20,000 bases of DNA from an uncultured virus (IMG/VR IMGVR_UViG_3300042350_002513) (IMGVR_UViG_3300042350_002513); one strand, 5' to 3'. Numbered from the stretch's first letter, positions 1,802 through 14,391 are shown. The notes: generated by a model from the letters alone, not told the origin. Translations and numbers: made by a program.

Positions 1802-1987
1802 TTGGCACGGTCCATGCTCCCCAGCACGTTTCATGCCAAGTCTAAGTTGGCACACTTTTTGCTCCCCAGCAAGTCCTATGCCAAGTCCGTCCAAACGATA
1901 GTTTTCCAATCTGGGGTCCCCAATTCCGAAAACTATCAAATCCCCATAGTTGGCATGGTTTCTGCTCCCCAGCAAGGGTCGTGCCAA
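1802..1987. repeat. three 38-bp palindromes, each two face-to-face sigma54-like -24/-12 boxes joined by CCCC
   Basis: TTGGCA-N7-TGCT-CCCC-AGCA-N7-TGCCAA at 1802-1839, 1847-1884, 1950-1987. Confidence 0.8.
1898..1936. repeat. 39-bp cassette-boundary dyad site #1
   Basis: ATAGTTTT CCAATCT GGGGTCCCC AATTCCG AAAACTAT. Confidence 0.92.
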
Positions 1988-2109
1988 GTGCCCGTTAACG
2001 TAGAAAATTAAAGTAGATTTAGTTCTTGTATATATATAAGTATATAGTAAATTGGCATAGTCAGTTTGGTTCTTATATAAATACAACGTCACTATATAAA
2101 TACAACATC

Positions 2110-2538
2110 ATGATCAATATAAATACAATACGCGCTGGTCAGATCGCTACTATACTACTAGAAGGCGAGTATAAATTAAACACTGGTGGCCGTAGTGGTA
2201 TACCACTAAATATATACAAAGGCCGTGTCACTAGAAAGTTCCGTTTTACTATATCGTTGGCGGGTGAAGAAACCTATTATAATATCAATCCCGATGCTAT
2301 TGGTAAACCCACTTGGTTTGAGTTTATCAAAGACGGCGTAGTGAGAAACAAGAAAACCGGCCAATTGTATTTGGCTGGCATTCCTCATAACAACAAGAAC
2401 AACAAGTTTGATTTATATATAGACGGTCGTCCTATTACTAAAGAAGAATACGACTATATTCAACAATATCGCCAAGATAAAGAAGAATGCAAGTTCCTCA
2501 CTATGTCTGTTGATAGTGTAGTAAATGTCGAAGACTGA
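2110..2538 (+). CDS. hypothetical protein, AT-rich paralog B (142 aa)
   Basis: MININTIRAGQIATILLEGE...GKPTW...DSVVNVED aligns end to end with 1248-1682. Confidence 0.85.
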   Translation: MININTIRAGQIATILLEGEYKLNTGGRSGIPLNIYKGRVTRKFRFTISLAGEETYYNINPDAIGKPTWFEFIKDGVVRNKKTGQLYLAGIPHNNKNNKFDLYIDGRPITKEEYDYIQQYRQDKEECKFLTMSVDSVVNVED

Positions 2539-2592
2539 TATATAAACAGTGGGGCGCGAATACTATAAACGCGCATTTAATACTAAAACACT

Positions 2593-2790
2593 ATGAATGC
2601 TAATAAAATAGGTGTTATGGAAATGATTGATATACGAATTGCTATTCAAGCAGAGATAGACAAATGTAATACGCTTATAGCAGAGTGTGACAAAGGTAAT
2701 TACAATAAGGACATCTTTGTTGATAAAAGAGATAGCCTTACTAGAGGTCTAGCTAAATTGAATAAGCAATACTATGATTTCATGCTATGA
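2593..2790 (+). CDS. small hypothetical protein (65 aa)
   Basis: ORF between paralog B and terminator; weak resemblance to 8285-8473 (E..D/E.R.A). Confidence 0.65.
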   Translation: MNANKIGVMEMIDIRIAIQAEIDKCNTLIAECDKGNYNKDIFVDKRDSLTRGLAKLNKQYYDFML

Positions 2791-2846
2791 TAATACTACT
2801 TCTTGTTGTCGTGTTAATAGGCATGACTAGATAAGCCCTTAATGAC

Positions 2847-2880
2847 AAACCCTCTGTAGTAATACAGGGGGTTTCTTGTT
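2847..2880 (+). terminator. intrinsic terminator
   Basis: AAACCCTCTGTA-gtaa-TACAGGGGGTTT followed by T-rich tail. Confidence 0.75.
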
Positions 2881-2905
2881 TATAAATAGTTGTTTATAAA
2901 TAGCG

Positions 2906-2944
2906 ATAGTTTTTGATTTTGGACACCCCGAATCCAGAAACTAT
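2906..2944. repeat. 39-bp cassette-boundary dyad site #2
   Basis: ATAGTTTT TGATTTT GGACACCCC GAATCCA GAAACTAT. Confidence 0.92.
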
Positions 2945-3017
2945 CAAATCAGTGATAAATCACTAGTACTACTATTATTTGGCATTTATTTGTTTAATAT
3001 TTATTTAATATTTGCAC

Positions 3018-3048
3018 AAAAAAACCCCACTGTTTATCACAGCGGGGT
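3018..3048 (-). terminator. intrinsic terminator
   Basis: A7-CCCCACTGT-ttatc-ACAGCGGGG. Confidence 0.75.
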
Positions 3049-3066
3049 ATTGTATTTGTTTAGTGT

Positions 3067-3483
3067 TTATTCATAATGTGGGCGAGGCTCCGCGCTATTG
3101 TCGGATTCGCCGCGCACCTGTTCGATGGTCACCCACAGTTCGCCGCCATCGTTCCATCCTGTGGGGATGTAGCCCTCATCGTGGTACGCCGTGTCACATT
3201 CCTCGCCCGGAAGCGCGGCCATCGCACGATACCGCGCAGGGGCTTCCTCGCGGTTCTCGCGCTCCACTTCCGCCTTGGCCTTTTCAAGCCAAGCCTCGGC
3301 CCCCTCCGTGGTGGGGAAGTAAATTGACCCCTCCAGCGTATTCCTATCGTACCACCAGCCACCTTCCTCGGGTCCACCGTAGTTCTGGCTTCGGCGATAC
3401 ACACTGACCCACGCGCCTTGCGGCACGTTGAAGTCAGGATGGGATTCGATTTTTTCGATCAGCGACTGCATTGTTGTTTTCAT
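3067..3483 (-). CDS. phage-type hypothetical protein (YGGPEEGGWWYD motif), 138 aa
   Basis: GC-rich ORF with a motif recognisable from phage/plasmid hypotheticals; start 7 nt after -10 TATGGT. Confidence 0.8.
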   Translation of the reverse strand: MKTTMQSLIEKIESHPDFNVPQGAWVSVYRRSQNYGGPEEGGWWYDRNTLEGSIYFPTTEGAEAWLEKAKAEVERENREEAPARYRAMAALPGEECDTAYHDEGYIPTGWNDGGELWVTIEQVRGESDNSAEPRPHYE

Positions 3484-3490
3484 CGTCCAC

Positions 3491-3518
3491 ACCATAACAC
3501 CCGCACAAGGGAAAACAA
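3491..3518 (-). promoter_or_regulatory. sigma70-type promoter, near-leaderless
   Basis: TTGTTT-N16-TATGGT-N7-ATG. Confidence 0.5.
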
Positions 3519-3532
3519 GGGCGAAAGTGATT

Positions 3533-3574
3533 TGTCACAGGAATTTAACAATCGCACTTGGCATGGTCCTTGCT
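3533..3574 (+). promoter_or_regulatory. PhoB/OmpR-like direct repeat plus sigma54-like box
   Basis: TGTCACAggaaTTTAACA-N7-TTGGCATGGTCCTTGCT. Confidence 0.55.
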
Positions 3575-3579
3575 TCACC

Positions 3580-3618
3580 ATAGTTTTCCGATTTTGGCAC
3601 CCCAAAAGCAAAAACTAT
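3580..3618. repeat. 39-bp cassette-boundary dyad site #3
   Basis: ATAGTTTT CCGATTT TGGCACCCC AAAAGCA AAAACTAT. Confidence 0.92.
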
Positions 3619-3649
3619 AAAAACTCCGCTATAGTAGTATAACGGAGTT
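3619..3649 (-). terminator. intrinsic terminator abutting site #3
   Basis: A5-CTCCGCTATA-gtag-TATAACGGAG. Confidence 0.7.
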
Positions 3650-3676
3650 ATGTTATTTGTTATCTATTTAACAAAG

Positions 3677-4093
3677 TTAGTCCCATTTTAATGTCCATTC
3701 TTTACCAATAAAGGGACGCATTTCACGCAATTCAAAAGAACTAATACAAGAACTTCCGCACCTAGTCAATTCAGGATTATCATTAGTCTTCCAATAAACA
3801 GTAGATCCATGTATAGAATTAACTATACAAGTACGGGGGCGATAGAAACCAAAATGCAAAAACTTATCTCCCACTTTAATACTATCAGAAAGATCTTTCA
3901 ATCCAAGTGAGTGACAGACAGAAGCTAATCTGCAATTGATCTTATCAAGCTCCAAAGCAATATCACTAGCAGAATGGAAATTAGCATTTGTTATGTTATT
4001 AGCGCAATCGTTGATTTGTTGAATGACAGACTTCACCTCATGCGCGAGCGCGAGGGTGGCGGCGGTAGTGGCGGGGCAGGAGGAGGAACTCAT
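3677..4093 (-). CDS. hypothetical protein (138 aa)
   Basis: start moved to ATG 4093, 9 nt after -10; the longer ORF would overlap the promoter and site #4. Confidence 0.7.
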   Translation of the reverse strand: MSSSSCPATTAATLALAHEVKSVIQQINDCANNITNANFHSASDIALELDKINCRLASVCHSLGLKDLSDSIKVGDKFLHFGFYRPRTCIVNSIHGSTVYWKTNDNPELTRCGSSCISSFELREMRPFIGKEWTLKWD

Positions 4094-4102
4094 GGTGCCC
4101 AA

Positions 4103-4130
4103 AGGGTAGCTGTCGGGAATGAGATTGCAA
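4103..4130 (-). promoter_or_regulatory. sigma70-type promoter, near-leaderless
   Basis: TTGCAA-N16-TACCCT-N9-ATG; shares TTGCAATCTCAT with promoter at 10953-10980. Confidence 0.55.
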
Positions 4131-4139
4131 ATCAATTTG

Positions 4140-4178
4140 ATAGTTTTTCTTTTTGACCTGCCCAAAAGCGAAAACTAT
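4140..4178. repeat. 39-bp cassette-boundary dyad site #4
   Basis: ATAGTTTT TCTTTTT GACCTGCCC AAAAGCG AAAACTAT. Confidence 0.88.
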
Positions 4179-4179
4179 G

Positions 4180-4210
4180 AAAAAACCCCGCTGTACTAAT
4201 ACAACGGGGC
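4180..4210 (-). terminator. intrinsic terminator abutting site #4
   Basis: A6-CCCCGCTGTA-ctaa-TACAACGGGG. Confidence 0.75.
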
Positions 4211-4228
4211 TGTTTATTTATCACTATT

Positions 4229-4432
4229 TCACCAATCAGAATCTTGCCCAGTGGGGTCTTCGTCCCACCCGCGCTGCCACTCAGAATGGCAGGGTTGGCA
4301 AACCGCGCTCCGTGCCTTCGGGGGCATCAAAACGCTGCAACGGGCGCAATGGAAACGCTCTGCGCCGTTTTCGTCGATGACGGGGCAACCGCCAGCTTCG
4401 TGCCCACAACAAGGGAAGTCTTCGCAAGCCAT
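4229..4432 (-). CDS. small Cys-rich hypothetical protein (CEDxPCCG motif, two CxxC)
   Basis: MACEDFPCCGH...CARC...CQPC; fits between promoter and terminator. Confidence 0.75.
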   Translation of the reverse strand: MACEDFPCCGHEAGGCPVIDENGAERFHCARCSVLMPPKARSAVCQPCHSEWQRGWDEDPTGQDSDW

Positions 4433-4517
4433 AATTTTGTATTGATTTTTTAATTGATTCTAACCGTCGCGCAGATTGTCGCTGACTTTTCATCTCAAAT
4501 CAACGGCAAAAATCATT

Positions 4518-4559
4518 TGTCACCAGAATTTAACAATTGGCTTTGGCATGAGATTTGCT
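4518..4559 (+). promoter_or_regulatory. PhoB/OmpR-like direct repeat plus sigma54-like box
   Basis: TGTCACCagaaTTTAACA-N7-TTGGCATGAGATTTGCT. Confidence 0.55.
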
Positions 4560-4564
4560 TCGGG

Positions 4565-4603
4565 ATAGTTTCTGAAATCGGGCACCCCAGATCCAAAAAC
4601 TAT
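4565..4603. repeat. 39-bp cassette-boundary dyad site #5
   Basis: ATAGTTTC TGAAATC GGGCACCCC AGATCCA AAAACTAT. Confidence 0.92.
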
Positions 4604-4688
4604 GAAATAGTGATAAATCAGTGATAAATCACTATTCTTTATTTATATTTGGTTATTATTTGCAGAACATTTGATTAATATTTGACAC

Positions 4689-4718
4689 AAAAAAACCCGC
4701 CGTATTACTACAGCGGGT
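4689..4718 (-). terminator. intrinsic terminator
   Basis: A7-CCCGCCGTA-ttac-TACAGCGGG. Confidence 0.75.
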
Positions 4719-4735
4719 CTCGTATTGTTATTGAA

Positions 4736-4993
4736 TTATGGTTCGTTGATGTATTGATTCCATTTATCAATAGCGTTTGTCAGAATGTATTCGTCAATCT
4801 CAGTGATAGAATCAGCATCAAACACTGATTTATCATAAGCAACGATACTGACATACTGTTGGCGAGTTTCGAGATCATAATCAAATATCACTTCAACAGC
4901 AATATCAGAACCAAACACATTAATTTTGGAGTTACAAACACTGAGATTCCCTTTGTTTTTAAGGGTTCCGTTTACAATAGGAATGAGATGCAT
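4736..4993 (-). CDS. hypothetical protein (85 aa)
   Basis: ORF just upstream of terminator; second gene of the cassette. Confidence 0.65.
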   Translation of the reverse strand: MHLIPIVNGTLKNKGNLSVCNSKINVFGSDIAVEVIFDYDLETRQQYVSIVAYDKSVFDADSITEIDEYILTNAIDKWNQYINEP

Positions 4994-5001
4994 ATGATTT
5001 A

Positions 5002-5199
5002 TCAGAAGCGGCTGAGATGCAATTCGTACAATTCCTGAAAGTATAAATCAGTGATACTATCACACTCAGCTTCTGTTAAATCGCGATTCAATTGTTTATG
5101 AAAAGCGGAATCGACATAAGCATTGCAGCTACCGGGATTAATGATAATAACTTCCTCTAAATCACTAAACTTGATTGTGGTTTTTGTATTAGTACTCAT
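5002..5199 (-). CDS. hypothetical acidic protein (65 aa)
   Basis: start moved to ATG 5199 (MSTNTKTT); the longer ORF crosses site #6. Confidence 0.65.
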   Translation of the reverse strand: MSTNTKTTIKFSDLEEVIIINPGSCNAYVDSAFHKQLNRDLTEAECDSITDLYFQELYELHLSRF

Positions 5200-5294
5200 G
5201 TTGTGTTTATAAATAAGAACAGTCCGACACTGAAGCTTACCACGCCCACGGAAGGAGTAAACAGGTATTTTTGACCAATTTTGATACCTAATCG

Positions 5295-5333
5295 ATAGTT
5301 TTCCGTTTTGGGCTGCCCAGATCCAAAAACTAT
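5295..5333. repeat. 39-bp cassette-boundary dyad site #6
   Basis: ATAGTTTT CCGTTTT GGGCTGCCC AGATCCA AAAACTAT. Confidence 0.92.
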
Positions 5334-5405
5334 GCCGAGAGCATAGGCGACAAACCCTGTCAAGCACTTTATTTGCACTTTATTTGCGTCAAATTGGAAT
5401 ATTTT

Positions 5406-5433
5406 TTGACAACCGCCAGCGATCTGATAACTT
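5406..5433 (+). promoter_or_regulatory. sigma70-type promoter, near-leaderless
   Basis: TTGACA-N16-TAACTT-N9-ATG. Confidence 0.7.
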
Positions 5434-5442
5434 GTCCCCGTC

Positions 5443-5721
5443 ATGAATCAACACCAACACATCGACACCGCCAGCGACCTCCGCGACCTCATCGCCATTG
5501 CGCCCACGGAGGAAACTCCCGTCGCCGAAGTCCCCACAACCCAAGTGCAAGTCAGTCAAGACATTTTTCTGGAAATGCGCGTCCAGCTTATGGCCTATCG
5601 CTCCGACGTTCGCTACTTCATGAACGGCATCATCGGCGAAGAAGAGAAGAAGAAAACCATTGACAAGTTGAACCAAGTCCTTGAAGACTCGGCTTGGGGA
5701 AAAGTCAAGATGATTTACTGA
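5443..5721 (+). CDS. hypothetical protein (92 aa)
   Basis: ORF bracketed by promoter and UUCG hairpin. Confidence 0.75.
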   Translation: MNQHQHIDTASDLRDLIAIAPTEETPVAEVPTTQVQVSQDIFLEMRVQLMAYRSDVRYFMNGIIGEEEKKKTIDKLNQVLEDSAWGKVKMIY

Positions 5722-5730
5722 AAAAACTCA

Positions 5731-5750
5731 CCCCGCTTCGGCGGGGCTTC
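5731..5750 (+). terminator. GC hairpin/terminator abutting site #7
   Basis: CCCCGC-TTCG-GCGGGG; weak U tract. Confidence 0.65.
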
Positions 5751-5789
5751 ATAGTTTCCAGAACGGGGCACCCCAGACGCAAAAACTAT
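5751..5789. repeat. 39-bp cassette-boundary dyad site #7
   Basis: ATAGTTTC CAGAACG GGGCACCCC AGACGCA AAAACTAT. Confidence 0.92.
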
Positions 5790-5830
5790 CCCCTTCGCTC
5801 CCGCGAAGAAAAAGATTTTTGGTTTTTTAT

Positions 5831-5858
5831 TTGACTCTTTCGGGCCAAAGTTTAATCT
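5831..5858 (+). promoter_or_regulatory. sigma70-type promoter, near-leaderless
   Basis: TTGACT-N16-TAATCT-N9-ATG. Confidence 0.7.
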
Positions 5859-5867
5859 GTAGGGGTC

Positions 5868-6068
5868 ATGAGCAAAACGATTGAATTTTACAACCGCGAA
5901 GTCTACGGCAACCTGCGCGAGTACGTTGCCAACGAAGGTGACGCAAACATCATTTACCGCTTGACGGGAAAGAAAACCATCACTAGTGTGGAGCGCGAGT
6001 TGATTCGTGACCTCTCCGGTGGTCTGATTCATTTCAAACAAATTTTGCCCCCTTCGAAGTCGAAGTGA
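5868..6068 (+). CDS. phage-type hypothetical protein (VYGN...LTGKKT motif), 66 aa
   Basis: ORF directly after promoter. Confidence 0.75.
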   Translation: MSKTIEFYNREVYGNLREYVANEGDANIIYRLTGKKTITSVERELIRDLSGGLIHFKQILPPSKSK

Positions 6069-6084
6069 GGGTGGGTTAAGGCAC

Positions 6085-6262
6085 AAGCGGCATGGTACGC
6101 AGGGAGACCCTGCGGCGGGTTAGTTGAACCTTTAGAAACACCGCTTTTTAGATTGGGTTCGCGTCAAATGGTACGCAGGGAGATCCTGCGGCAGGGTTTT
6201 TTCTAAGAGAATAAGACTTGTTCTCTTTTGGGTTTTGACCCTCATGAAACAGACGCGAATCC
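6085..6262 (+). ncRNA. tandem pair of putative three-way-junction RNA motifs
   Basis: units 6085-6146 and 6155-6262 share ATGGTA-CGCAGGGAGAYCCTGCG-GC...GAAACA with different but base-pairing closing stems; strand inferred from cassette direction. Confidence 0.55.
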
Positions 6263-6267
6263 TTTCG

Positions 6268-6306
6268 ATAGTTTCGGGCAATGGGCACCCCCAACAAAAA
6301 AACTAT
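6268..6306. repeat. 39-bp cassette-boundary dyad site #8
   Basis: ATAGTTTC GGGCAAT GGGCACCCC CAACAAA AAAACTAT. Confidence 0.92.
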
Positions 6307-6324
6307 GAAAAACGATTTTTCTTT

Positions 6325-6353
6325 TTGACAATCAACGCCGATTCCATTAACTT
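6325..6353 (+). promoter_or_regulatory. sigma70-type promoter, leaderless
   Basis: TTGACA-N17-TAACTT-N7-ATG. Confidence 0.7.
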
Positions 6354-6360
6354 GTCCCCG

Positions 6361-6666
6361 ATGAAATTAATGACGAAACAACTCACTGAAAAACTCAAAA
6401 AGGCCGGTTCTGACGGCATGGTCCCCATTTGTAAGCTTTTCACCCCGTGGGGTGCCGTTACTTGGTTGATCACTGGGATCGAAGGTGGCATCCTTTACGG
6501 GTTCGCTGACTTGGGCATGGGTTGCGTTGAATGGGGCGGGATCGCTTCCGTGGAAGAATTGGAAGCAATCAAGGGACCGCTTGGAATGACCATTGAGCGT
6601 GACTTGTACTGGCAACCCAAGGAAGGCGTGAATTACTTTGAACTTGAAACCCTCGCGGCTGTTTAA
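6361..6666 (+). CDS. DUF2958 family protein (101 aa)
   Basis: KLFTPWGAVTWLIT...GFADLGMGCVEWG...ELE...GPLG..IERDLYW; start moved to 6361. Confidence 0.8.
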   Translation: MKLMTKQLTEKLKKAGSDGMVPICKLFTPWGAVTWLITGIEGGILYGFADLGMGCVEWGGIASVEELEAIKGPLGMTIERDLYWQPKEGVNYFELETLAAV

Positions 6667-6668
6667 TT

Positions 6669-6851
6669 ATGAGAGAATCTGTTTATGCTGCCGAGTGTTG
6701 GGCTACTGATAAATCAAAAGAAGAAATCCAATCAGAAATCAATTACTTACAAAACCTTTGGAAGATTAAACACCCAAACCCTTTCCCTAAAAACGCACAC
6801 TATAGTCACATCAGGATTGTAACACTAAAAGAAATCCTTAAGAATAAATAA
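6669..6851 (+). CDS. hypothetical protein (60 aa)
   Basis: tightly packed operon ORF. Confidence 0.6.
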   Translation: MRESVYAAECWATDKSKEEIQSEINYLQNLWKIKHPNPFPKNAHYSHIRIVTLKEILKNK

Positions 6852-6853
6852 AT

Positions 6854-7057
6854 ATGAATCCAAACTATAGACAACTCGCTGAACGTGAAAAACATTTAAT
6901 CCCAAAAGAGTTCTGGGATATGATGGAATCACAAGCTTGGGAGCGTGGACATTCAAGTGGACAACAGGAAGTCGATTTACTACTGATGAATCTAGTGAAT
7001 GATTTTGTTGACGCTACTATCAAATACACTATAAGAACTGGTAAGACGCTTGTTTAA
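6854..7057 (+). CDS. hypothetical protein (AWERGHSSG motif), 67 aa
   Basis: tightly packed operon ORF. Confidence 0.7.
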   Translation: MNPNYRQLAEREKHLIPKEFWDMMESQAWERGHSSGQQEVDLLLMNLVNDFVDATIKYTIRTGKTLV

Positions 7058-7061
7058 TAAT

Positions 7062-7187
7062 ATGTCAATCGACGAAATTCTTTTTAATTACAACAAAGCA
7101 TACGATAAACTAGTTCATTGCGCCGAAAATGAATATGAAGTAGCAGAAAAGAAATTGCAATATTGGCGGCATTTATTTTTCAGATAA
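7062..7187 (+). CDS. small hypothetical protein (41 aa, not in ORF track)
   Basis: MSIDEILFNYNKAYDKLVHCAENEYEVAEKKLQYWRHLFFR fills the gap between neighbours. Confidence 0.55.
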   Translation: MSIDEILFNYNKAYDKLVHCAENEYEVAEKKLQYWRHLFFR

Positions 7188-7188
7188 T

Positions 7189-7383
7189 ATGAAAGCTCTC
7201 ACACTTCAACAGATACAAGCTAACTTAAAAGAATGGATGGGTGATAGTATAAAGCCCGATACCAGAAGCGGAAAACTTGCAGAGCGTACTTACATAAAGG
7301 CTCTTTTAGATACAGGCGCAACTGTTCCGCCGATTTGCATTATACTACTACAGAGTGGACGTAGTATTGTAAACTTCAAATAA
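7189..7383 (+). CDS. hypothetical protein (64 aa)
   Basis: last ORF before terminator. Confidence 0.65.
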   Translation: MKALTLQQIQANLKEWMGDSIKPDTRSGKLAERTYIKALLDTGATVPPICIILLQSGRSIVNFK

Positions 7384-7390
7384 ATAGTAA

Positions 7391-7410
7391 CCCCGCCCCG
7401 GCGGGGCTTT
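7391..7410 (+). terminator. intrinsic terminator abutting site #9
   Basis: CCCCGC-CCCG-GCGGGG-CTTT. Confidence 0.7.
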
Positions 7411-7411
7411 C

Positions 7412-7450
7412 ATAGTTTCCGAAATTGGCCTCCCCGAATCAAAAAACTAT
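7412..7450. repeat. 39-bp cassette-boundary dyad site #9
   Basis: ATAGTTTC CGAAATT GGCCTCCCC GAATCAA AAAACTAT. Confidence 0.9.
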
Positions 7451-7468
7451 CAAATCGAAAAAAAATCT

Positions 7469-7496
7469 TTGACACTCTCCAAGAATCTGATATTTT
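7469..7496 (+). promoter_or_regulatory. sigma70-type promoter, leaderless
   Basis: TTGACA-N16-TATTTT-N7-ATG. Confidence 0.65.
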
Positions 7497-7503
7497 CTCT
7501 CAC

Positions 7504-7896
7504 ATGAACAAAATCACTTTGTCTCTATTTGTCGTCGCCCTTGTAACCCTTGGGTTTTCCCGCCGCAACCACGGCACGAAGGAAGACTTGTTTCGCGCAA
7601 TGGCCCAAGTTGAATCTTCAGGCAATCCCAAGGCAATCAACGCCAAGGAAACTGCCCTTGGAATTTACCAAATCCGCCCCATGTATTTTCTTGACGCTGG
7701 AGTCAAGGGGGCGCATAGTCAGGTGTATGACCCTGCGGTCGCCCGTAAGGTCTGTGAGCGTTACTTTATGCGATATGAGCCTAAAGCTTTTGCCAATAAT
7801 GACATAGAGACTTTGGCTCGCTTGCATAATGGCGGTCCTAATTGGCGCAAAAAAGATACTGATAAATACTGGAATAAAATCAAAAAACACTTGTAA
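7504..7896 (+). CDS. lysozyme-like muramidase (i-type lysozyme/destabilase or SLT-like) with N-terminal signal/anchor
   Basis: hydrophobic N-terminus; QVESSG (catalytic Glu), GIYQI, ARLHNGGP...YWNKIK. Confidence 0.8.
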   Translation: MNKITLSLFVVALVTLGFSRRNHGTKEDLFRAMAQVESSGNPKAINAKETALGIYQIRPMYFLDAGVKGAHSQVYDPAVARKVCERYFMRYEPKAFANNDIETLARLHNGGPNWRKKDTDKYWNKIKKHL

Positions 7897-7900
7897 TAAT

Positions 7901-8002
7901 ATGAGCAACAAAACCTTTGATAGAATCATAAATACTGTAATTACATTACTCGTCATTGCTACTGTTGTTAGTGTTACTGTGGTTTACAATATTATCTTTT
8001 AA
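7901..8002 (+). CDS. 33-aa single-TM membrane peptide (not in ORF track)
   Basis: MSNKTFDRIINTVITLLVIATVVSVTVVYNIIF with 4-nt gaps to both neighbours. Confidence 0.55.
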   Translation: MSNKTFDRIINTVITLLVIATVVSVTVVYNIIF

Positions 8003-8006
8003 TAAT

Positions 8007-8288
8007 ATGGAACTCACTTTTCTTTCTGACCCCGGCCACGGTTGGCTTCGCGTTCCTCATAAATTGCTTGAAGACTGGAATATTGATATCTTAATATCAG
8101 AGTATAGTTATAGAACAAGAGACTTTGCTTACTTAGAGGAAGACTGTGATGCTTCTATCTTCATTGACGAAGCCAAGAAAAGGAATTACAAATATTCTAT
8201 TCACTATAAGTTGATTAAAGACTTCGATTACTATCTCAAAAGCGTTGGCAATTACTATAGATTCAACAATAACCTAAGAACAGCATGA
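8007..8288 (+). CDS. phage/plasmid-type hypothetical protein (DPGHGWL...YLEEDCD motif)
   Basis: start moved to ATG 8007; recognisable motif. Confidence 0.8.
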   Translation: MELTFLSDPGHGWLRVPHKLLEDWNIDILISEYSYRTRDFAYLEEDCDASIFIDEAKKRNYKYSIHYKLIKDFDYYLKSVGNYYRFNNNLRTA

Positions 8289-8473
8289 GTGCAGAATTAA
8301 AAATAACAATACAAGAAGTAGTAGAACTCCGTGTAGCACTAAATAACGCAGAACGCCGTATCAAAGAGCTAATGGCGTTAAAGCATGAAGACTGGCATAA
8401 ATTGTATCATTTAGATATTGATTCAATAGAAAAAGGGAAACAAGCCCTTAAAACTATTATACAAAGAGATTAA
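8285..8473 (+). CDS. hypothetical protein (62 aa)
   Basis: ATGA overlap with upstream ORF; ends before terminator. Confidence 0.7.
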   Translation: MSAELKITIQEVVELRVALNNAERRIKELMALKHEDWHKLYHLDIDSIEKGKQALKTIIQRD

Positions 8474-8478
8474 ATCAC

Positions 8479-8500
8479 AACCCCGCTTCGGCGGGGTTTT
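8479..8500 (+). terminator. intrinsic terminator abutting site #10
   Basis: AACCCCGC-TTCG-GCGGGGTTTT. Confidence 0.8.
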
Positions 8501-8501
8501 C

Positions 8502-8540
8502 ATAGTTTCTGGAATCGGGCACCCCGAAGGAAAAAACTAT
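8502..8540. repeat. 39-bp cassette-boundary dyad site #10
   Basis: ATAGTTTC TGGAATC GGGCACCCC GAAGGAA AAAACTAT. Confidence 0.92.
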
Positions 8541-8567
8541 CCCTTGCAAGAAAAGTGATCATTTCCA

Positions 8568-8596
8568 TTGACGCTTTCCCTTTCAAGGGCTACTGT
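8568..8596 (+). promoter_or_regulatory. sigma70-type promoter, near-leaderless
   Basis: TTGACG-N17-TACTGT-N8-ATG. Confidence 0.65.
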
Positions 8597-8604
8597 TGGG
8601 GCGT

Positions 8605-9480
8605 ATGAATAACACAGTTAAAAACGCTATCCGCCACCTCGTTTGCAAAGCCTATGACGCTTTCGCGCAAAACAAAATAGACATTAGTGTCATATCACTC
8701 CCCGGTTCTTCGTGGGAGTTTGAGAAATACGTTGTTAATCACAGAGACTATTCTAATACGTTTACTACAAACGGATATGGTCTTGAAATGTCACTGTTTG
8801 AATGTGACAGCAGTGAGTATCAGAGCAACTTGCGCCCAGTTGCTGCTATCTTTCCGCATAACAAGACTAGCGCATACATGCTTTCTTGTTCTAATATTAC
8901 TTATCGTAATGAATACATAAACGCTGATAGTGTTAATAAACTCAAATCCAAAAACATTTTCGCATGGTTTGATTTCTGCGGTAATCCTACTACACAAAAT
9001 CTTGATTTAATTAATACCGCTAAGGGCAAGACTGCTACTTTTGTTTTTACTTTCAATACGCACTGGCGTTCTGTCAGTAATCTTAGCCCTGAGATTCTTG
9101 AAGTTGCTAATCAATACAACAAAGGATATGCCATTCAATGCTACTTGCTGCGATTGGCTATTGATTTAGGTTTGTCACTGATTTGGTCTTTTGAGTATGT
9201 GTCAAATAATAATCCCATGATGACTATCTGTGTCAGTAATGACATTAATGTTATCACAAATCGTCCTTTGCAGGTTAAGGACTTCATCACTCACGAAAAG
9301 AAAGACAAAAAGATCAATCTTAATAAGACTAAATTGGTTCTCAATAAACGCGAATTGAGTGCCGTCTATGCGGATTTGAAAGAGCGTGTTAGTGATAGTG
9401 AAATCTGTAACAAACACAATATTAGTACAGGCACACTTGCGGCTTGTAAGGCTTGGATGACTATGTGGAAAGCTTGGTAA
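8605..9480 (+). CDS. hypothetical protein, possible SAM-methyltransferase-like fold with C-terminal HTH-like segment (291 aa)
   Basis: ORF is solid; fold guess from ISLPG / FECD / AWFDFCG pattern and SDSEICNKHNISTGTL. Confidence 0.6.
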   Translation: MNNTVKNAIRHLVCKAYDAFAQNKIDISVISLPGSSWEFEKYVVNHRDYSNTFTTNGYGLEMSLFECDSSEYQSNLRPVAAIFPHNKTSAYMLSCSNITYRNEYINADSVNKLKSKNIFAWFDFCGNPTTQNLDLINTAKGKTATFVFTFNTHWRSVSNLSPEILEVANQYNKGYAIQCYLLRLAIDLGLSLIWSFEYVSNNNPMMTICVSNDINVITNRPLQVKDFITHEKKDKKINLNKTKLVLNKRELSAVYADLKERVSDSEICNKHNISTGTLAACKAWMTMWKAW

Positions 9481-9495
9481 TACAATAGCATTATC

Positions 9496-9518
9496 ACCCC
9501 GCCTTCGGGCGGGGTTTT
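9496..9518 (+). terminator. intrinsic terminator abutting site #11
   Basis: CCCCGCC-TTCG-GGCGGGG-TTTT. Confidence 0.8.
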
Positions 9519-9557
9519 ATAGTTTCCAGATCCGGGCACCCCGAATCCAAAAACTAT
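9519..9557. repeat. 39-bp cassette-boundary dyad site #11
   Basis: ATAGTTTC CAGATCC GGGCACCCC GAATCCA AAAACTAT. Confidence 0.92.
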
Positions 9558-9560
9558 GCG

Positions 9561-9591
9561 AAAAACCCCCTAGTGTTAAACACTAGAGGGT
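9561..9591 (-). terminator. intrinsic terminator
   Basis: A5-CCCCCTAGTGT-taa-ACACTAGAGGG. Confidence 0.75.
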
Positions 9592-9613
9592 GCTTTATTT
9601 GTTATTTGTTGCT

Positions 9614-9808
9614 TTATTCTTTAATATTTTCTTTCTTATCAACAAGCCTATAGACTTTGAAACGAATATTATTAAGGTCTTTTCTAATACTCGCTAATTC
9701 GGCGCGAATCTTTTCGCGTCTGTTTAACAATAGCCTTGCAGACTTTTTCATCTGCTTAAGGTTATTGATTTTAGTTTGCAACTTAGTTATCTGCTTTTCT
9801 TGTGTCAT
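9614..9808 (-). CDS. basic coiled-coil hypothetical protein (64 aa)
   Basis: ORF between Gp88-like gene and terminator. Confidence 0.6.
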   Translation of the reverse strand: MTQEKQITKLQTKINNLKQMKKSARLLLNRREKIRAELASIRKDLNNIRFKVYRLVDKKENIKE

Positions 9809-9872
9809 TTTCTTTTATTGTTTTCTGTTATTATACCTATAACTAATACTATTACAAGTATTGCTATAATCA

Positions 9873-10505
9873 TTAGTGCAATTTGTAACTAACGTTTTTA
9901 ACTGATTTATCCCAACAGGCGCGGCAATTGAGACATTTATTATCTTGATTGGAGGCAGGACAATTGAATGTTTTATCTTTTGACACACCAGAAGTCGTTA
10001 ATCCTAATATCTTAGCAATACCAGTAGGCGCATTGCCGTTTATCATTAGGGAAGAAAGGCGAATAGTGAGATTGGAAGGAATATCACCAAATTGTTTCTT
10101 GTATTGAGTAACAAATGAATATTCCCTAGTGGGTAACCAGAATTTAATACTAGGAAGATTGATAGCAATCTGACAAATCTTTCTCAAATGCTCCACAGAT
10201 TGAATATCTCCACTATCATGCCACCGGAAATAGCCACTAGTTTCTTTTCCAGCAATAGCAATAGTCATAGCGTCAACCCACTCGGGTTTGTTAATAGAGT
10301 CAAATCGTTTTTGTAAAGCGTTTCTGACATTGGGCATGTTATAGAAACCTTTTAATGCATAACACTTAGAACAAACACTATTCTTAATAGACACTAATTT
10401 TCCGCCCGTTTTACAATACTTTGCCGGGATTGAATAGGAGCGGCACGGCATTTTTGAGGGCGCAGAGAGTCCACCAACGAGGTCAAGGGCAAGGTCAAGA
10501 TTCAT
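9873..10505 (-). CDS. phage Gp88-like protein (Cys-rich, radical-SAM-like)
   Basis: SKMP..SYSIPA..C...CSKCYA; FRWHDSGD; FWLPTRE; PSNLTIRLS; CLNCRACW; start 10505 or 10508. Confidence 0.8.
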   Translation of the reverse strand: MNLDLALDLVGGLSAPSKMPCRSYSIPAKYCKTGGKLVSIKNSVCSKCYALKGFYNMPNVRNALQKRFDSINKPEWVDAMTIAIAGKETSGYFRWHDSGDIQSVEHLRKICQIAINLPSIKFWLPTREYSFVTQYKKQFGDIPSNLTIRLSSLMINGNAPTGIAKILGLTTSGVSKDKTFNCPASNQDNKCLNCRACWDKSVKNVSYKLH

Positions 10506-10512
10506 CATGGAA

Positions 10513-10541
10513 AGGTTAACGCAAAGGGCAAACCAGCGCAA
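10513..10541 (-). promoter_or_regulatory. sigma70-type promoter, leaderless
   Basis: TTGCGC-N17-TAACCT-N7-ATG. Confidence 0.55.
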
Positions 10542-10561
10542 CACTTTTGTTGCGTTTTTCA

Positions 10562-10600
10562 ATAGTTTTTCGCGCCGGGGTGTCCAGTTTCAAAAACTAT
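10562..10600. repeat. 39-bp cassette-boundary dyad site #12 (core inverted)
   Basis: ATAGTTTT TCGCGCC GGGGTGTCC AGTTTCA AAAACTAT; core is the reverse complement of the site #2 core. Confidence 0.9.
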
Positions 10601-10614
10601 CAAAATGTAATAAT

Positions 10615-10638
10615 AAACCCCAATCTATCAAATCGGGG
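10615..10638 (-). terminator. probable terminator
   Basis: AAACCCCAAT...ATCGGGG imperfect hairpin. Confidence 0.5.
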
Positions 10639-10681
10639 CTTATTTGACTTATTTGCGGTTAATGTTTTTAATATTTGAAGC

Positions 10682-10945
10682 TTAATGAAAGAAAATTCTT
10701 GACTCGTCTTTGAATGTTTTCTCTTTGCCAGTTTCGTCCCATTCGATACCGTATGTCAAACCTTCTTCGACATGATGTTTATGTAAATAATTGAAACCCT
10801 TGTATTGCTTTGCTTCCATCAGCAGGTCCGTCACGAAGAACTGGAGAGTTCTGCGTTGAATGATCGCTTCGTTTTTGCTGGTGCAAAAGAAGTGATTGGC
10901 TTTCAGTTTGACTGATTCAAGGCTAACCGTTTTACGTTTTGTCAT
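10682..10945 (-). CDS. hypothetical protein (YKGFNYL motif), 87 aa
   Basis: ORF 7 nt after -10 TACTAT. Confidence 0.75.
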   Translation of the reverse strand: MTKRKTVSLESVKLKANHFFCTSKNEAIIQRRTLQFFVTDLLMEAKQYKGFNYLHKHHVEEGLTYGIEWDETGKEKTFKDESRIFFH

Positions 10946-10952
10946 CGGGGAA

Positions 10953-10980
10953 ATAGTAATTCATGGGCATGAGATTGCAA
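10953..10980 (-). promoter_or_regulatory. sigma70-type promoter, leaderless
   Basis: TTGCAA-N16-TACTAT-N7-ATG. Confidence 0.65.
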
Positions 10981-10989
10981 GGGTTTTTC

Positions 10990-11028
10990 ATAGTTTTTTT
11001 ATTCTGGCACCCCAGACCCGAAAACTAT
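10990..11028. repeat. 39-bp cassette-boundary dyad site #13
   Basis: ATAGTTTT TTTATTC TGGCACCCC AGACCCG AAAACTAT. Confidence 0.92.
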
Positions 11029-11039
11029 CGTGGGCAGCG

Positions 11040-11065
11040 AAAAGGGGCACCCCGTAGGATGCCCC
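11040..11065 (-). terminator. intrinsic terminator
   Basis: AAAA-GGGGCACCC-cgta-GGATGCCCC. Confidence 0.7.
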
Positions 11066-11092
11066 GTGCTGCTTCTATTTGGCGATCTGGCG

Positions 11093-11953
11093 TTAGTTGC
11101 TGGCGAGTTTCTTGAACTCGGCTTCGATCAGGCTGGCCTTGTTGAGGGCGACCAACGTGCCCCGGTTGATGCGTTGCGCCAGTTCGTATGAGGTAGGCTC
11201 GACCTGATGCGAGGTGAATTGGGTGACGGCGTTGTACAGGCTCCAGAGACTCCGGTTCTTGTCCTCGCGGTGCGAGGGGTCGTTCCAGATGATTTTGATT
11301 TTGTCCGTGTTGCGGTCAGCGATCACCTTGGCCTTGGTGAGCTTGTCGAGGATAGTGTGCCCCTGATCCTGCTTGATGGAGCGGTCAGCCAAGCGGCTAA
11401 ACACGCTGGTGCTTTCCTTGAAGCCCTCGACCGCGCCAGCCACAACGTCCACAAGGCGGGAAACGTCGAGCTTGTCGGAGTGCTTCTGGGTGAGGCTGAA
11501 CTCATCCTGAAGCGTCTTCAGGCCGTTGGTGCAAACAAGGCGAAGGATGCCCATCTCGAAAGAGACGCGACAGGTGCGGTCGAACGAGTTGTTGAGGATC
11601 AGGCGCAAGCCAAGCTCATCCCCAACCTTGGGCAGCTTCACCAGTTGGTTCTTGAAGTCATACTGGACGTAGACTCGCGCACCGTCGCGCATGGAGTACT
11701 CCTTGCGGGTGAACTCGCCCAACTTGTTGTCGGCGAAGGCGTTCTCGACGGTATCCATCAGGGAGCGGTTCTGAACGAGGGTGTAGCGTTCAGTGCAAAC
11801 CCCAAGCATCTGCTTGGTGTCGGTGCGGCGATTGCCGAGCCAACCAGTGGCTTCGCCGTCAGGGGTGAGAAGCGGGATAGTCTCGACCGTGTAGTCGAGC
11901 AAGCTATCGGCGCGAGTGGTGGCAGTGGCGGGGGTGACGTTGATCTCGGTCAT
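11093..11953 (-). CDS. DUF932/DUF945 family protein (286 aa)
   Basis: LGV.TERY.LVQN; LILNNSFD; RLVCTNG; SLWSLYNAVT; markedly GC-rich codons. Confidence 0.85.
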   Translation of the reverse strand: MTEINVTPATATTRADSLLDYTVETIPLLTPDGEATGWLGNRRTDTKQMLGVCTERYTLVQNRSLMDTVENAFADNKLGEFTRKEYSMRDGARVYVQYDFKNQLVKLPKVGDELGLRLILNNSFDRTCRVSFEMGILRLVCTNGLKTLQDEFSLTQKHSDKLDVSRLVDVVAGAVEGFKESTSVFSRLADRSIKQDQGHTILDKLTKAKVIADRNTDKIKIIWNDPSHREDKNRSLWSLYNAVTQFTSHQVEPTSYELAQRINRGTLVALNKASLIEAEFKKLASN

Positions 11954-11992
11954 AAGTGCAGTGTTGATGTTAAGTGTTAACTGACGGACCAG

Positions 11993-12021
11993 AGGTTAGA
12001 CGGCAATCAAATCAGCCGCAA
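11993..12021 (-). promoter_or_regulatory. sigma70-type promoter
   Basis: TTGCGG-N17-TAACCT. Confidence 0.5.
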
Positions 12022-12059
12022 GTCCTTTTCGCACTTTTTTTTCAGAATCTTTCGGACCC

Positions 12060-12098
12060 ATAGTTTCCTGTGCCGGGGTGCCCAAATCCAAAAACTAT
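12060..12098. repeat. 39-bp cassette-boundary dyad site #14 (core inverted, last copy)
   Basis: ATAGTTTC CTGTGCC GGGGTGCCC AAATCCA AAAACTAT. Confidence 0.92.
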
Positions 12099-12218
12099 CA
12101 TTATCAAAAAAATAATCCTTGACAAACTATCTCATCTACTATCTATCTCCTTATATATTTCAATCAATAACTGGTATTATTTGGCTTATTTGCTGGTAAT
12201 GTTTTTAATATTTGCAAT

Positions 12219-12245
12219 AAAAAAGCCCCCTTTATTTAGGAGGCT
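12219..12245 (-). terminator. terminator downstream of tRNA-Gln
   Basis: A6-GCCCCCT-ttattt-AGGAGGC. Confidence 0.65.
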
Positions 12246-12258: not shown

Positions 12259-12332
12259 TGGTTGGGGATGATGGAATCGAACCACCACAAAGAGCTTCAA
12301 AGGCTCCCGCACTACCATTATGCAAATCCCCA
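12259..12332 (-). tRNA. trnQ: tRNA-Gln(UUG)
   Basis: cloverleaf with TGGGGAT/ATCCCCA acceptor, GGAGC-CT TTG AA-GCTCT, TTCGATT T-loop, encoded CCA. Confidence 0.93.
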
Positions 12333-12338
12333 GTAAAA

Positions 12339-12371
12339 GAAAAACCCACTAGTATATTAAACCAGTGGGCT
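12339..12371 (-). terminator. hairpin/terminator after 12388-12603
   Basis: A5-CCCACTAGT...ACCAGTGGG. Confidence 0.55.
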
Positions 12372-12387
12372 GTTATTATTTTGATTA

Positions 12388-12603
12388 TTACGCCTTAACG
12401 TACTTAATCTTACCAGACTTAACAGATAGAATCTTACTGACAGGAACACGACGATCAGCATCAGCATTCACATCATAAAAAGAAACAGTCTTATTAGATG
12501 CAGATAGGATCTGAGCGCAGAACGTGGTGTTCTCCTTCTTAGAACCAACGACTAGGGTAGTGAAACGACCGGCAGTATTATTTAGTGTATCAGTTAATGA
12601 CAT
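12388..12603 (-). CDS. small hypothetical beta-rich protein (71 aa)
   Basis: ORF; FYDVNADADRRVPVSKI loosely recalls phage SH3/WYL_2-like barrels. Confidence 0.65.
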   Translation of the reverse strand: MSLTDTLNNTAGRFTTLVVGSKKENTTFCAQILSASNKTVSFYDVNADADRRVPVSKILSVKSGKIKYVKA

Positions 12604-12613
12604 ACACTACATA

Positions 12614-12754
12614 CTAGTCACCGGAGATCTTTTTATACAAAAAAAATAAAGAAATTCCAATCAATGCAAAACCTGCGGGAATCTTAATCATCATCAATCC
12701 AAATAAGAATAATAGCAAGATAAAAGAATAAGACTGCTCAGTTTCGATTTGCAT
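12614..12754 (-). CDS. small membrane protein (46 aa)
   Basis: start moved to ATG 12754; two hydrophobic segments. Confidence 0.5.
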   Translation of the reverse strand: MQIETEQSYSFILLLFLFGLMMIKIPAGFALIGISLFFLYKKISGD

Positions 12755-12907
12755 ATAAGAAAGAAAAAATAAGTAGAAGGCCCCGATTTTATGAGTTACG
12801 GCGCAGGTTTCAATGAGGTACGAATAACACAGCACAACACGACCTATTCTAGCAGACAATCTAGAATATACTCTTTACCTTTAATTTACTTCTACTTATT
12901 TAAAAAG

Positions 12908-13222
12908 TTAAACTGCGGCGAGCTTAGAAAGCTTGTAGAGAGTAATAGTCATGCACCAATTGTTTCGTTCAAAATGCTTCGCATCAATTTCAATAGTACC
13001 ATCTGGGCATGTAATAACAGCAGCGTTAAGGCTCTCATTTGACACCATCAATTCGCCCACATCTCCATTATCAATGTCACACTTCAGACCTTCACCAGTA
13101 AGATGTATTTGACCATAATACAACCTTTCATCAATTACGCCATAATCAATATCTACCGCATCAGCAGACATAATCTGATTAACAATGTCTTGTGCCTTCT
13201 TAGTCAGCTTAACTACTTTCAT
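12908..13222 (-). CDS. hypothetical protein (104 aa)
   Basis: ORF downstream of TTGACA-N17-TATGGT (13273-13301, minus). Confidence 0.7.
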   Translation of the reverse strand: MKVVKLTKKAQDIVNQIMSADAVDIDYGVIDERLYYGQIHLTGEGLKCDIDNGDVGELMVSNESLNAAVITCPDGTIEIDAKHFERNNWCMTITLYKLSKLAAV

Positions 13223-13348
13223 ATATTTATTTAATTACCACCGAATAGTTGAGCTATCTCCCAACTCTCCAAACCATACTTGACGAATTGCTCTATGTCA
13301 AGCTCCTCATACCGGAAATACGACAGGGAATATCCGTCCCCTTCTTTC

Positions 13349-13513: not shown

Positions 13514-13536
13514 ATTTACTAAGTGTTTGTTAAAGT

Positions 13537-13615: not shown

Positions 13616-13634
13616 CCAAAAAACCTTATACTCC

Positions 13635-13662: not shown

Positions 13663-13697
13663 ATCAAAACCTCACTAGAATCTTCTAGCAAGGAAAA

Positions 13698-14389: not shown

Positions 14390-14391
14390 GT

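Follow-up and report, generated by a model that had tools for sequence, protein, structure and literature searches.

Integron cassettes are mostly promoterless, face one direction and share a common promoter, with the IntI tyrosine recombinase adjoining the array, and their attC sites (57–141 bp, with boxes R'', RYYYAAC, and R', GTTRRRY) are conserved in structure and not in sequence. In cluster A mycobacteriophages, the stoperators, which are sites of the L5 repressor, are 13 bp long, asymmetric, oriented with transcription and distributed genome-wide. In lambdoid phages, promoter-gene-terminator units (morons) are added between genes, and short conserved border sequences (boundary or linker sequences) favor exchange. 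For large virulent phages, the acquisition and reshuffling of accessory small genes are largely unexplained; illegitimate recombination and homologous recombination at regulatory motifs have been proposed. In T4-type phages, promoter-early stem-loop (PeSL) elements are described as a sigma-70-like early promoter plus a stem-loop terminator between ORFans of hyperplastic regions (PMC2839356); these motifs mark points of insertion, deletion or replacement among relatives, their stem-loops often read poly-G then poly-C, and exchange is ascribed to homologous recombination (PMC2839356, PMC4122927). The locus analyzed here, at positions 1898 to 12098 of a 20,000-nucleotide stretch (hereafter, the window) from the uncultured virus IMGVR_UViG_3300042350_002513, is an array of 14 copies of a 39-bp dyad site (s1 to s14) separating 13 small expression cassettes (K01 to K13). 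A sequence-only reading of the window had proposed that these sites are boundaries that let units be gained, lost or inverted; comparison with relatives supports the proposal and turned up nothing to refute it, with the qualifications that a recombinase is postulated and that the inverted copies are not simple flips.

The initial count of 14 sites, all 39 bp long, lying between genes and occurring nowhere else in the window, was reproduced by two scans. The pattern ATAGTTTY-N23-RAAACTAT matches the 20-kb window 14 times, without mismatch and at the starts first reported, against a chance expectation of 0.90 ± 0.92 from shuffles (0 of 200 shuffles reach 14). When the 14 outer bases may differ at no more than 2 positions and 4 or more of the 6 core positions must be G/C, the same 14 sites and no others are recovered, and none overlaps an open reading frame (ORF) taken as a gene. 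A 61-kb twin record in IMG/VR (G002, in which window base 1 is base 47243) has the same 14 sites at 49140–59340. Beyond the array, its only further matches are two, each with 2 mismatches and neither with a GGG/CCC core; over these 61 kb the motif is thus limited to one array, with no site elsewhere in the 20 kb or in the 47 kb that precede them.

Alignment of 67 distinct sites from the window and its relatives yielded the consensus ATAGTTTCCnGnTTTGGGCTCCCCAAAnnCAAAAACTAT and refined the anatomy to a dyad, ATAGTTT-N8-GGG-N3-CCC-N8-AAACTAT. Followed from the arm inward, both halves conform to the consensus ATAGTTTYYGGATTTGGG and have in common a weaker inner box (GGATTT). Positions 1–6, 23 and 33–39 are invariant, and conservation reaches 90% or more at positions 7, 16–18, 22, 24 and 32; G-run and C-run are always 3 bp apart, and the central triplet between them varies freely, even between near-identical sites. 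The asymmetric core, GGGC-W-CCCC (GGG-SWS-CCC), gives each site a direction. With all sites oriented along the array, positions 19 and 21 are C..C in 80 distinct sites of the window's arm type (type A) and in 15 of a second arm type (type B, described below), and read G..G in only 4 type A and 1 type B sites (95 vs 5 overall), with the same polarity in plus-strand and minus-strand units. This uniformity looks like that of direct repeats of a recombination site, and a symmetric operator would have no evident need of it.

All 14 window sites are given on the plus strand. The array begins with s1 (1898–1936, core GGGGTCCCC), between the paralogous genes P1 and K01p, followed by s2 (2906–2944, GGACACCCC), s3 (3580–3618, TGGCACCCC), s4 (4140–4178, GACCTGCCC, the weakest core with 4 of 6), s5 (4565–4603, GGGCACCCC) and s6 (5295–5333, GGGCTGCCC), a divergent junction with the promoter side on both flanks. 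The core GGGCACCCC recurs at s7 (5751–5789, the insertion point of cassette K22 in relatives), s8 (6268–6306), s10 (8502–8540) and s11 (9519–9557), which is a convergent junction with terminators on both flanks; s9 (7412–7450) has GGCCTCCCC, and s13 (10990–11028) repeats TGGCACCCC. Core polarity is reversed at s12 (10562–10600, GGGGTGTCC) and at s14 (12060–12098, GGGGTGCCC), the right end of the array. The sites occupy tandem junctions, a convergent junction (s11) and divergent ones (s6, s1 and s14).

A 79-kb relative with a 99% identical terminase (G012) has no ATAGTTT site. It carries homologs of K02–K04 and K07–K13 (82–95% identity) in a different order, together with 15 type B sites of the same length and core, whose outer arms are AGAGTTGC...GCAACTCT (AGAGTTG...CAACTCT). 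The type B form, AGAGTTGC-N7-GGGNNNCCC-N7-GCAACTCT, was found in the arrays L187+L188 (G012), L192, L206, L203 and L201. Relative to type A, positions 2 and 7 and their mirrors 33 and 38 are changed in every site, and the 156 distinct sites divide into 120 AA, 36 BB and no hybrid, with no array mixing types. At orthologous sites (window s11–s14 vs G012), the core triplet is kept, including the rare reversed GTG at s14, and the arms differ far more than the flanks. A third type, C, occurs in a more distant relative, with at least 5 sites of 45–49 bp in which type B outer arms surround longer G-run/C-run palindromes (G5-6...C5-6; L283 484–529, 2144–2190 and 5195–5239; L333 12298–12346 and 13695–13741); the fixed 39-bp length noted at first thus holds for types A and B but not for type C. 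Type C arrays have fewer sites each, and L333 also carries tandem 41-bp repeats at 8330–8454. In G012, parts of K04 and K03 share one interval with no site between them, and part of K09 precedes K08. A reading of the type B arms as two direct AGAGTTG subsites is not borne out by the half-site consensus.

An arm change that is dyad-symmetric, array-wide and lineage-specific points to one cognate phage-encoded protein or, less likely, to stem pairing. Arm positions are paired in 76.5% of cells across the 67 sites, compared with 78.2 ± 0.6% in shuffles, and positions 8–12 and 28–32 are unpaired in 35–50 of them. Folded as single-stranded DNA, the 14 window sites give energies of -2.3 to -9.0 kcal/mol with z-scores of 0 to -6.6, 5 of the 14 being weaker than -1.3. 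Rfam 15 at its gathering score places no family over the sites, its only matches in the window being 6 tRNAs. Because the arms do not covary, the hairpins are weak and uneven, and the outer arms changed in concert and dyad-symmetrically in sister lineages, the site is most likely a protein site on double-stranded DNA, which agrees with the view first taken of it as no RNA hairpin.

Relatives were collected by an IMG/VR motif scan, which gave 12 contigs with at least 2 sites, and by two anchor-protein scans, which gave more; in a metagenome scan, 40 of 46 loci carried type A sites. The cassette census drew on 28 sources, some redundant, with sequences merged and oriented. These 28 arrays contain 297 sites and 269 cassettes of 32 families in about 14 distinct orders (read from the listing), so that, far from keeping one order, relatives differ by whole-cassette gain, loss, translocation and inverted copies, with two families present in both orientations. 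The window and c42887 carry K01 to K13 in sequence. The order is K01, K04, K14, K02, K05, K15, K07, K09, K16, K17, K11 in c09183 and K01 (inverted), K04, K14, K02, K05, K18, K06, K07 in c28394. In c27140 it is K01, K19, K20, K05, K14, K21, K18, K06, K22, K07, K08, K23 and K10 to K13, and in c35661 it is K01, K04, K14, K19, K24, K05, K14, K21, K18, K06, K22, K07, K09, K16, K25 and K11 to K13. The DUF2958 cassette (K08 family) takes three positions—before K09, between K09 and K10, and after K10, where it is inverted—and seven type A sources, along with the type B arrays, have K01 inverted. Three adjacent sites of c35661 (IMGVR 3300035661_000279), sites 6–8, all have the outer-arm change ATAGTTC and flank the second, diverged K14 copy, which is 70–77% identical to the first, suggesting local duplication of a site-cassette unit.

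Sequence identity is as mosaic as gene order. Between the window and c27140, K06–K08 are 96.8–99% identical, and K01, K05 and K10–K13 are 78–86% identical. Likewise, K22 matches at 330 of 331 positions between c27140 and c35661, where the neighboring K06 and K07 are 74–85% identical; near identity amid diverged neighbors indicates that single cassettes moved recently between diverged backbones.

Five independent indel events were available in which an A-site-C-site-B array could be compared with an A-site-B array across flanks at least 85% identical. For K14, whose flanks share 96.4% and 99.2% identity over 250 nt, the empty site corresponds to positions 1–19 of the left site joined to 20–39 of the right one: every informative position up to 14 agrees with the left site and every one from 20 on with the right. 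For K22, with flank identities of 93.6% and 98.8%, the right site supplies all of the core and right arm, and the left arm is mostly that of the left site, with three differences beside the core. In the three clearest comparisons of sites sharing only the right cassette (K22/K07 vs K06/K07, K21/K18 vs K05/K18 and K01/K19 vs K14/K19), differences are confined to positions 8–16; in the average over all pairs, sites sharing only the left cassette are more alike over the full site than those sharing only the right one.

These observations can be drawn together in a model in which the 39-bp sites, which fence each transcription unit of a roughly 10-kb hyperplastic array, would be polar dyad recognition sites for a putative phage-encoded DNA-binding protein. 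Each half-site comprises a lineage-specific outer box (ATAGTTT here), the weaker inner box GGATTT and the G-run, the two halves meeting at the asymmetric core, and a cassette would consist of half-site, promoter, gene or genes, terminator and half-site. Cassettes could then be excised, inserted and swapped between co-infecting relatives by conservative recombination, with crossover in the core leaving each half-site with its neighboring cassette, and the outer arm might double as part of the T-tract of abutting terminators. That the sites are polar recombination sites at which a dedicated protein exchanges cassettes is judged to have about an even chance of being right. The sites, their confinement to one array and their polarity, the cassette-level rearrangements, the two hybrid junctions and the concerted arm change are established by the data; that the crossover is made by a dedicated recombinase in place of general recombination, and by which protein, is inferred.

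Several results weigh against this model. The core-hybrid pattern was seen in only 2 of the 5 independent indel events: in the K18 indel the empty site is the whole left site, and of the remaining two, one is mixed and one is opposite to the expected pattern. At the K22 slot, it is in the K06 terminator, and not in the core, that the window and c27140 begin to differ. Tracts of 96% identity or more, taken from pairs that are not independent, have 43 ends, of which 6 fall in a site, 5 outside but within 80 nt of one, and 32 elsewhere. The closest pair differs by two indels, one of 215 bp (K04) and one of about 340 bp (K08), both of which break at ORF edges inside cassettes, as do the lake-contig variants, and loose ends of lake contigs fall at ORF-terminator and promoter-ORF edges (e.g., 7370, 8481 and 8624). 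Inverted cassettes are old alleles, about 80% identical and with regulatory ends of their own; the half-sites of inverted K01 were not carried along, and direct repeats of one polarity leave inverted cassettes unexplained. Finally, neither a tyrosine recombinase (PF00589) nor a serine recombinase was found in five records of 49–79 kb (CheckV completeness 30–45%), nor any recombinase family by Pfam and PHROGs among the window and upstream ORFs, which cover about half of the genome, in line with the remark made at the outset that the window has none.

Lake-water contigs display further changes within cassettes. In 2 of 4 runs examined, a form lacking 347 bp of K08 (6841–7189, two small ORFs) and having 6 other letters at the joint was present, which is the form of the IMG/VR relative c42887; in one run, 151 bp of K05 (4848–5000) are replaced by 141 other letters. 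Four weak joints (7386>8601, 8501>8601, 5495>5731 and 2587>2846) were not counted, their sides being only 21–30 letters. The expectation that breakpoints coincide with sites thus held in part: unit-level differences are site-bounded and two junctions are core hybrids, but many mosaic breakpoints lie inside cassettes. Exchange therefore operates at two levels, with whole cassettes exchanged at sites and single ORFs exchanged within a regulatory frame.

A more specific version of the recombination model is a tentative one: the array may be an independently built, integron-like capture and shuffling platform of phages, with polar sites whose core would be recombined by a new kind of recombinase, for which the beta-rich pair K01p and P1 is one candidate, and with an arm specificity that would have diversified into at least three types (A, B and C) in a single group of lake phages. 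P1 (1251–1757, minus strand) lies just left of s1, is a paralog of K01p (50% identity) and diverges from it, and the two flank s1 wherever the left end of the array was seen. Identity of K01p to the window copy is 67–83% in 7 type A contigs and 52–54% in 3 type B contigs, and all 39 of the 39 metagenome loci with a K01p match of at least 67% identity carry type A sites, while P1 has no identity split by arm type. The correlation with K01p may be mere linkage, since the gene lies inside the array. K01p has no Pfam or PHROG family and has homologs in this phage group only; tblastn against cultured phages returned nothing. Its AlphaFold model has a predicted local distance difference test score of 76, Foldseek against the PDB gave nothing at E <= 0.001, and a wide structural comparison reached a best Z of 3.9, which is noise level, with Atlas scores of at most 0.83. 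K01p may be the site-binding protein, as a lead only. The flanking endonuclease VII-like gene was set aside as the cognate factor, and so was orf49: the window and L192, a type B contig, share them at 95% and 99% identity, respectively, and neither follows the type of the arms.

The main rival explanation, judged less likely than not, is that a dimeric phage regulator uses the site as its operator, insulator or roadblock, shuffling being a by-product of homologous or microhomology recombination between terminator-site-promoter blocks, as proposed for PeSL elements (PMC2839356, PMC4122927). The concerted arm switch implies a cognate protein, and a regulator fits that as well as a recombinase does. 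Strong terminators adjoin the site within 0–3 nt, their T-tail continuing into ATAGTTT, and blocks of 60–110 nt around sites are 73–84% alike between different cassettes. The many breakpoints outside the core, in terminators, ORF edges and cassette interiors, and the failure to find a recombinase in the five records also suit this explanation. However, a symmetric dimer site needs no array-wide core asymmetry independent of transcription; sites stand at the promoter-less junction s11 and at s6, where there is nothing to stop; and the distance from site center to first ATG ranges from about 64 to 129 nt (counted from the sequence), so that an operator would have no fixed position. Two indels switch exactly in the 5–9-bp core, though the 7–8-bp outer arms offer longer identity to homologous exchange.

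It is unlikely that the cassettes are instead non-autonomous transposable units, each ending in bipartite 18-bp inverted repeats made up of a GGG tip, an inner box and an outer box, with the site formed by two ends abutted 3 bp apart. Some insertion sequences (IS30/IS3) do form end-to-end junctions and target their own ends. Half-sites that stay with the adjacent cassette, the fixed 3-bp spacer with its freely variable triplet, and the occurrence of both cassette orientations would all follow; in L297, where the DUF2958 cassette is inverted, its half-site on the promoter side is the reverse complement of the A-rich promoter-side arm found elsewhere. But core polarity is fixed to the array and not to the cassette, the half-sites of the inverted K01 allele are not inverted, the 61-kb record has neither a cassette nor a site standing alone beyond the array, and no transposase was found among about 85 ORFs in Pfam and PHROGs scans, DDE- and HUH-specific models not having been run on the larger records.

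Least probable of all is a role in RNA or as a DNA hairpin or cruciform. The element might extend terminators in both directions, serve for processing, or form a cruciform that the endonuclease VII-like enzyme cuts, creating a recombination hotspot. In favor of this, the outer 7-bp stem and the GGG/CCC stem can always pair, both pairs altered between types A and B still match, the palindromes of type C sites have long G- and C-runs, and the T-tracts of terminators extend into the arm. To the left of the array, at a distance of about 1 kb, there is also an endonuclease VII/HNH-like gene (364–876, minus strand; phrog_3322 8e-25, endonuclease VII 6e-17). Against it, inner pairing is not above that of shuffles, folding is weak, a plain hairpin needs no invariant sequence with lineage-specific arms, and the endonuclease gene is indifferent to site type.

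Unit directions, + | - - - - | + + + + + | - - - when written with bars at the changes of direction, follow from ORFs, terminators and promoters alike and are those originally given; the sharp G+C contrasts described between neighbors are also present, from 0.32 to 0.58 per 500 nt. The claim that nearly every unit has a recognizable promoter at one end and a terminator at the other is only partly borne out for the promoter. Terminator-like hairpins are enriched (26 vs 9.8 ± 3.0 expected), with a hairpin on the right strand computed for 8 of 13 units, and K06, K08, K09 and K11 have hairpins with poorer T-tails by eye. A generic sigma-70 scan gave no enrichment (26 vs 22.4 expected). The motif TTGAC-N17/18-TANNNT is enriched (11 vs 1.86 expected) and is found in each of the five plus-strand units K06–K10, 7–10 nt ahead of the first ATG, but in no minus-strand unit inside the array. 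In plus-strand cassettes (5406–5445, 5831–5870, 6325–6363 and 7469–7506), a -10-like hexamer ends 7–10 nt before the ATG with no Shine-Dalgarno sequence, suggesting that the mRNAs of these cassettes could be leaderless or near-leaderless. A MotA-box reading was rejected by eye for wrong spacing.

Cassette genes are mostly ORFans, the exceptions by Pfam and PHROGs being DUF2958, an SLT domain, GP88 and DUF932. On the plus strand, K01 (1937–2905) holds K01p (2110–2538, 142 aa) and a 65-aa ORF (2593–2790); it is present in every array whose left end was seen, inverted in some, and its allele tracks site type. Four minus-strand cassettes follow: K02 (2945–3579; ORF 3067–3495, G+C about 0.55), whose position differs in relatives; K03 (3619–4139; ORF 3677–4093), which only some arrays have; K04 (4179–4564), whose ORF is ambiguous (4229–4432 or 4281–4493) and which is 215 bp longer in the closest relative; and K05 (4604–5294; ORFs 4736–4993 and 5002–5199). 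The plus-strand block comprises K06 (5334–5750; ORF 5443–5721, promoter-like sequence 5406–5433), K07 (5790–6267; ORF 5868–6068, promoter-like sequence 5831–5858), K08 (6307–7411; the DUF2958 gene 6361–6666 and four small ORFs), K09 (7451–8501; the SLT-domain gene 7504–7896 and two ORFs) and K10 (8541–9518; ORF 8605–9480, for which no family was found). The final three are again on the minus strand: K11 (9558–10561; a GP88-family gene at 9873–10508 and two small ORFs), K12 (10601–10989; ORF 10682–10945) and K13 (11029–12059; the DUF932 gene 11093–11953, G+C about 0.58).

Other repeated elements accompany the sites. A second dyad of about 38 bp, TTGGCAYG-N5-TGCT-CCCC-AGCA-N5-CRTGCCAA, occurs at 1802–1839 and 1847–1884, left of s1, and at 1950–1987, right of it, upstream of the divergent paralogs P1 and K01p, and relatives retain it. 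Half-copies at 3558–3574 and 4543–4559 lie directly left of s3 and s5. A single half is similar to a sigma-54 -24/-12 element (TGGCAC-N5-TTGC); a sigma-54-like reading of TGGCAY-N5-TTGCT beside s3 and s5 was nevertheless rejected, these being half-copies of the dyad. The palindrome AGTGATAAATCACT lies at 2951–2964 and 4620–4633, between the site (s2 and s5) and the terminator of some minus-strand cassettes, and is followed by an AT-rich module (about 2960–3020 and 4640–4690) with repeated TTATTTG...TAATATTTG. The module also occurs without the palindrome after s12 and s14 (about 10640–10680 and 12170–12220); it is directed opposite to the cassette gene, also stands at the head of the inverted K01 allele, and resembles Bacteroidota -33/-7 promoter motifs.

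The bearer is a virulent-looking, large, uncultured lake phage that is not T4-type. Upstream of the array are virion genes, the large terminase, an ERCC4-type nuclease, PhoH and two tail-fiber-like genes of about 2,500 and 2,700 codons; downstream are an epimerase and six tRNAs (Gln, Arg, Leu, Met, Lys and Asn; 12259–14776, minus strand), with TTGAC-N17/18-TANNNT motifs on the same strand. CheckV rates the 61-kb record 36% complete, which implies a genome of roughly 170 kb. The best cultured matches to the large terminase subunit (TerL) are from the Bacillus siphophages PBC4 and Basilisk, at about 24% identity, with no T4-like record among the listed TerL matches, and megablast of the window against 50,697 phage records gave no match. 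All 24 public runs with the array, detected in contigs, are lake-water metagenomes. Many contigs end within the array, and most K01p-family proteins come from contigs of 1–3 kb, both as expected of a locus that breaks assemblies; the array would also explain the assembly breaks of this abundant lake phage here.

For the question of how such phages reshuffle small genes, one discrete, directional and lineage-specific boundary site, at which some junctions switch in the core, makes the matter testable. Should a dedicated enzyme exist, it would represent a new recombination system, and the insulated promoter-gene-terminator format may interest builders of genetic constructs; should there be none, the array would still be the clearest natural example of a standardized expression-cassette rack in a phage. 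A full-text literature search retrieved the PeSL papers and no description of this motif or array, which is not proof of absence.

Compared with the systems introduced above, the array shares with stoperators the many copies of one short protein site in short intergenic gaps of a phage gene block, but its sites are 39-bp dyads with polarity independent of transcription and are confined to one array. As with lambdoid boundary sequences and morons, promoter-gene-terminator units sit between existing genes with conserved module borders; unlike in lambdoid phages, the array is regular, with a common fixed-length dyad and a lineage-wide concerted motif change. With integrons it has in common a one-locus array of cassettes of mixed origin and mixed G+C content, each of one or a few genes, with cassette-wise gain, loss and reshuffling, and, as in attC, an imperfect palindromic boundary site with conserved outer boxes, an unpaired middle and one shared polarity. 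In contrast to attC, however, the box order is GTT...AAC and not AAC...GTT, the length is fixed at 39 bp, and sequence is conserved in place of structure; the cassettes face both ways with their own terminators (the promoter motif being seen for K06–K10), the array resides in a large phage and not in a chromosome or plasmid, and no IntI-like gene was found in any of the five 49–79-kb records. PeSL regions are likewise plastic, with small ORFan units having their own promoter and terminator and conserved intergenic motifs at the points of difference. PeSLs are loose composites of promoter and hairpin in several subclasses; the element here is a separate dyad, fixed at 39 bp, with a polar core, arms that differ by lineage and 14 bases that never vary, and it also occurs at promoter-less junctions and has no PeSL counterpart. 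Terminators abut the sites here, and the promoter-like motif accompanies only the plus-strand units K06–K10; this phage, with TerL about 24% identical to Bacillus siphophage terminases, is not T4-like as PeSL hosts are; and two of its junctions switch inside a 5–9-bp core, unlike PeSL exchange, which is ascribed to homologous recombination. Thus, the array works like an integron or a PeSL region and fails the defining features of both.

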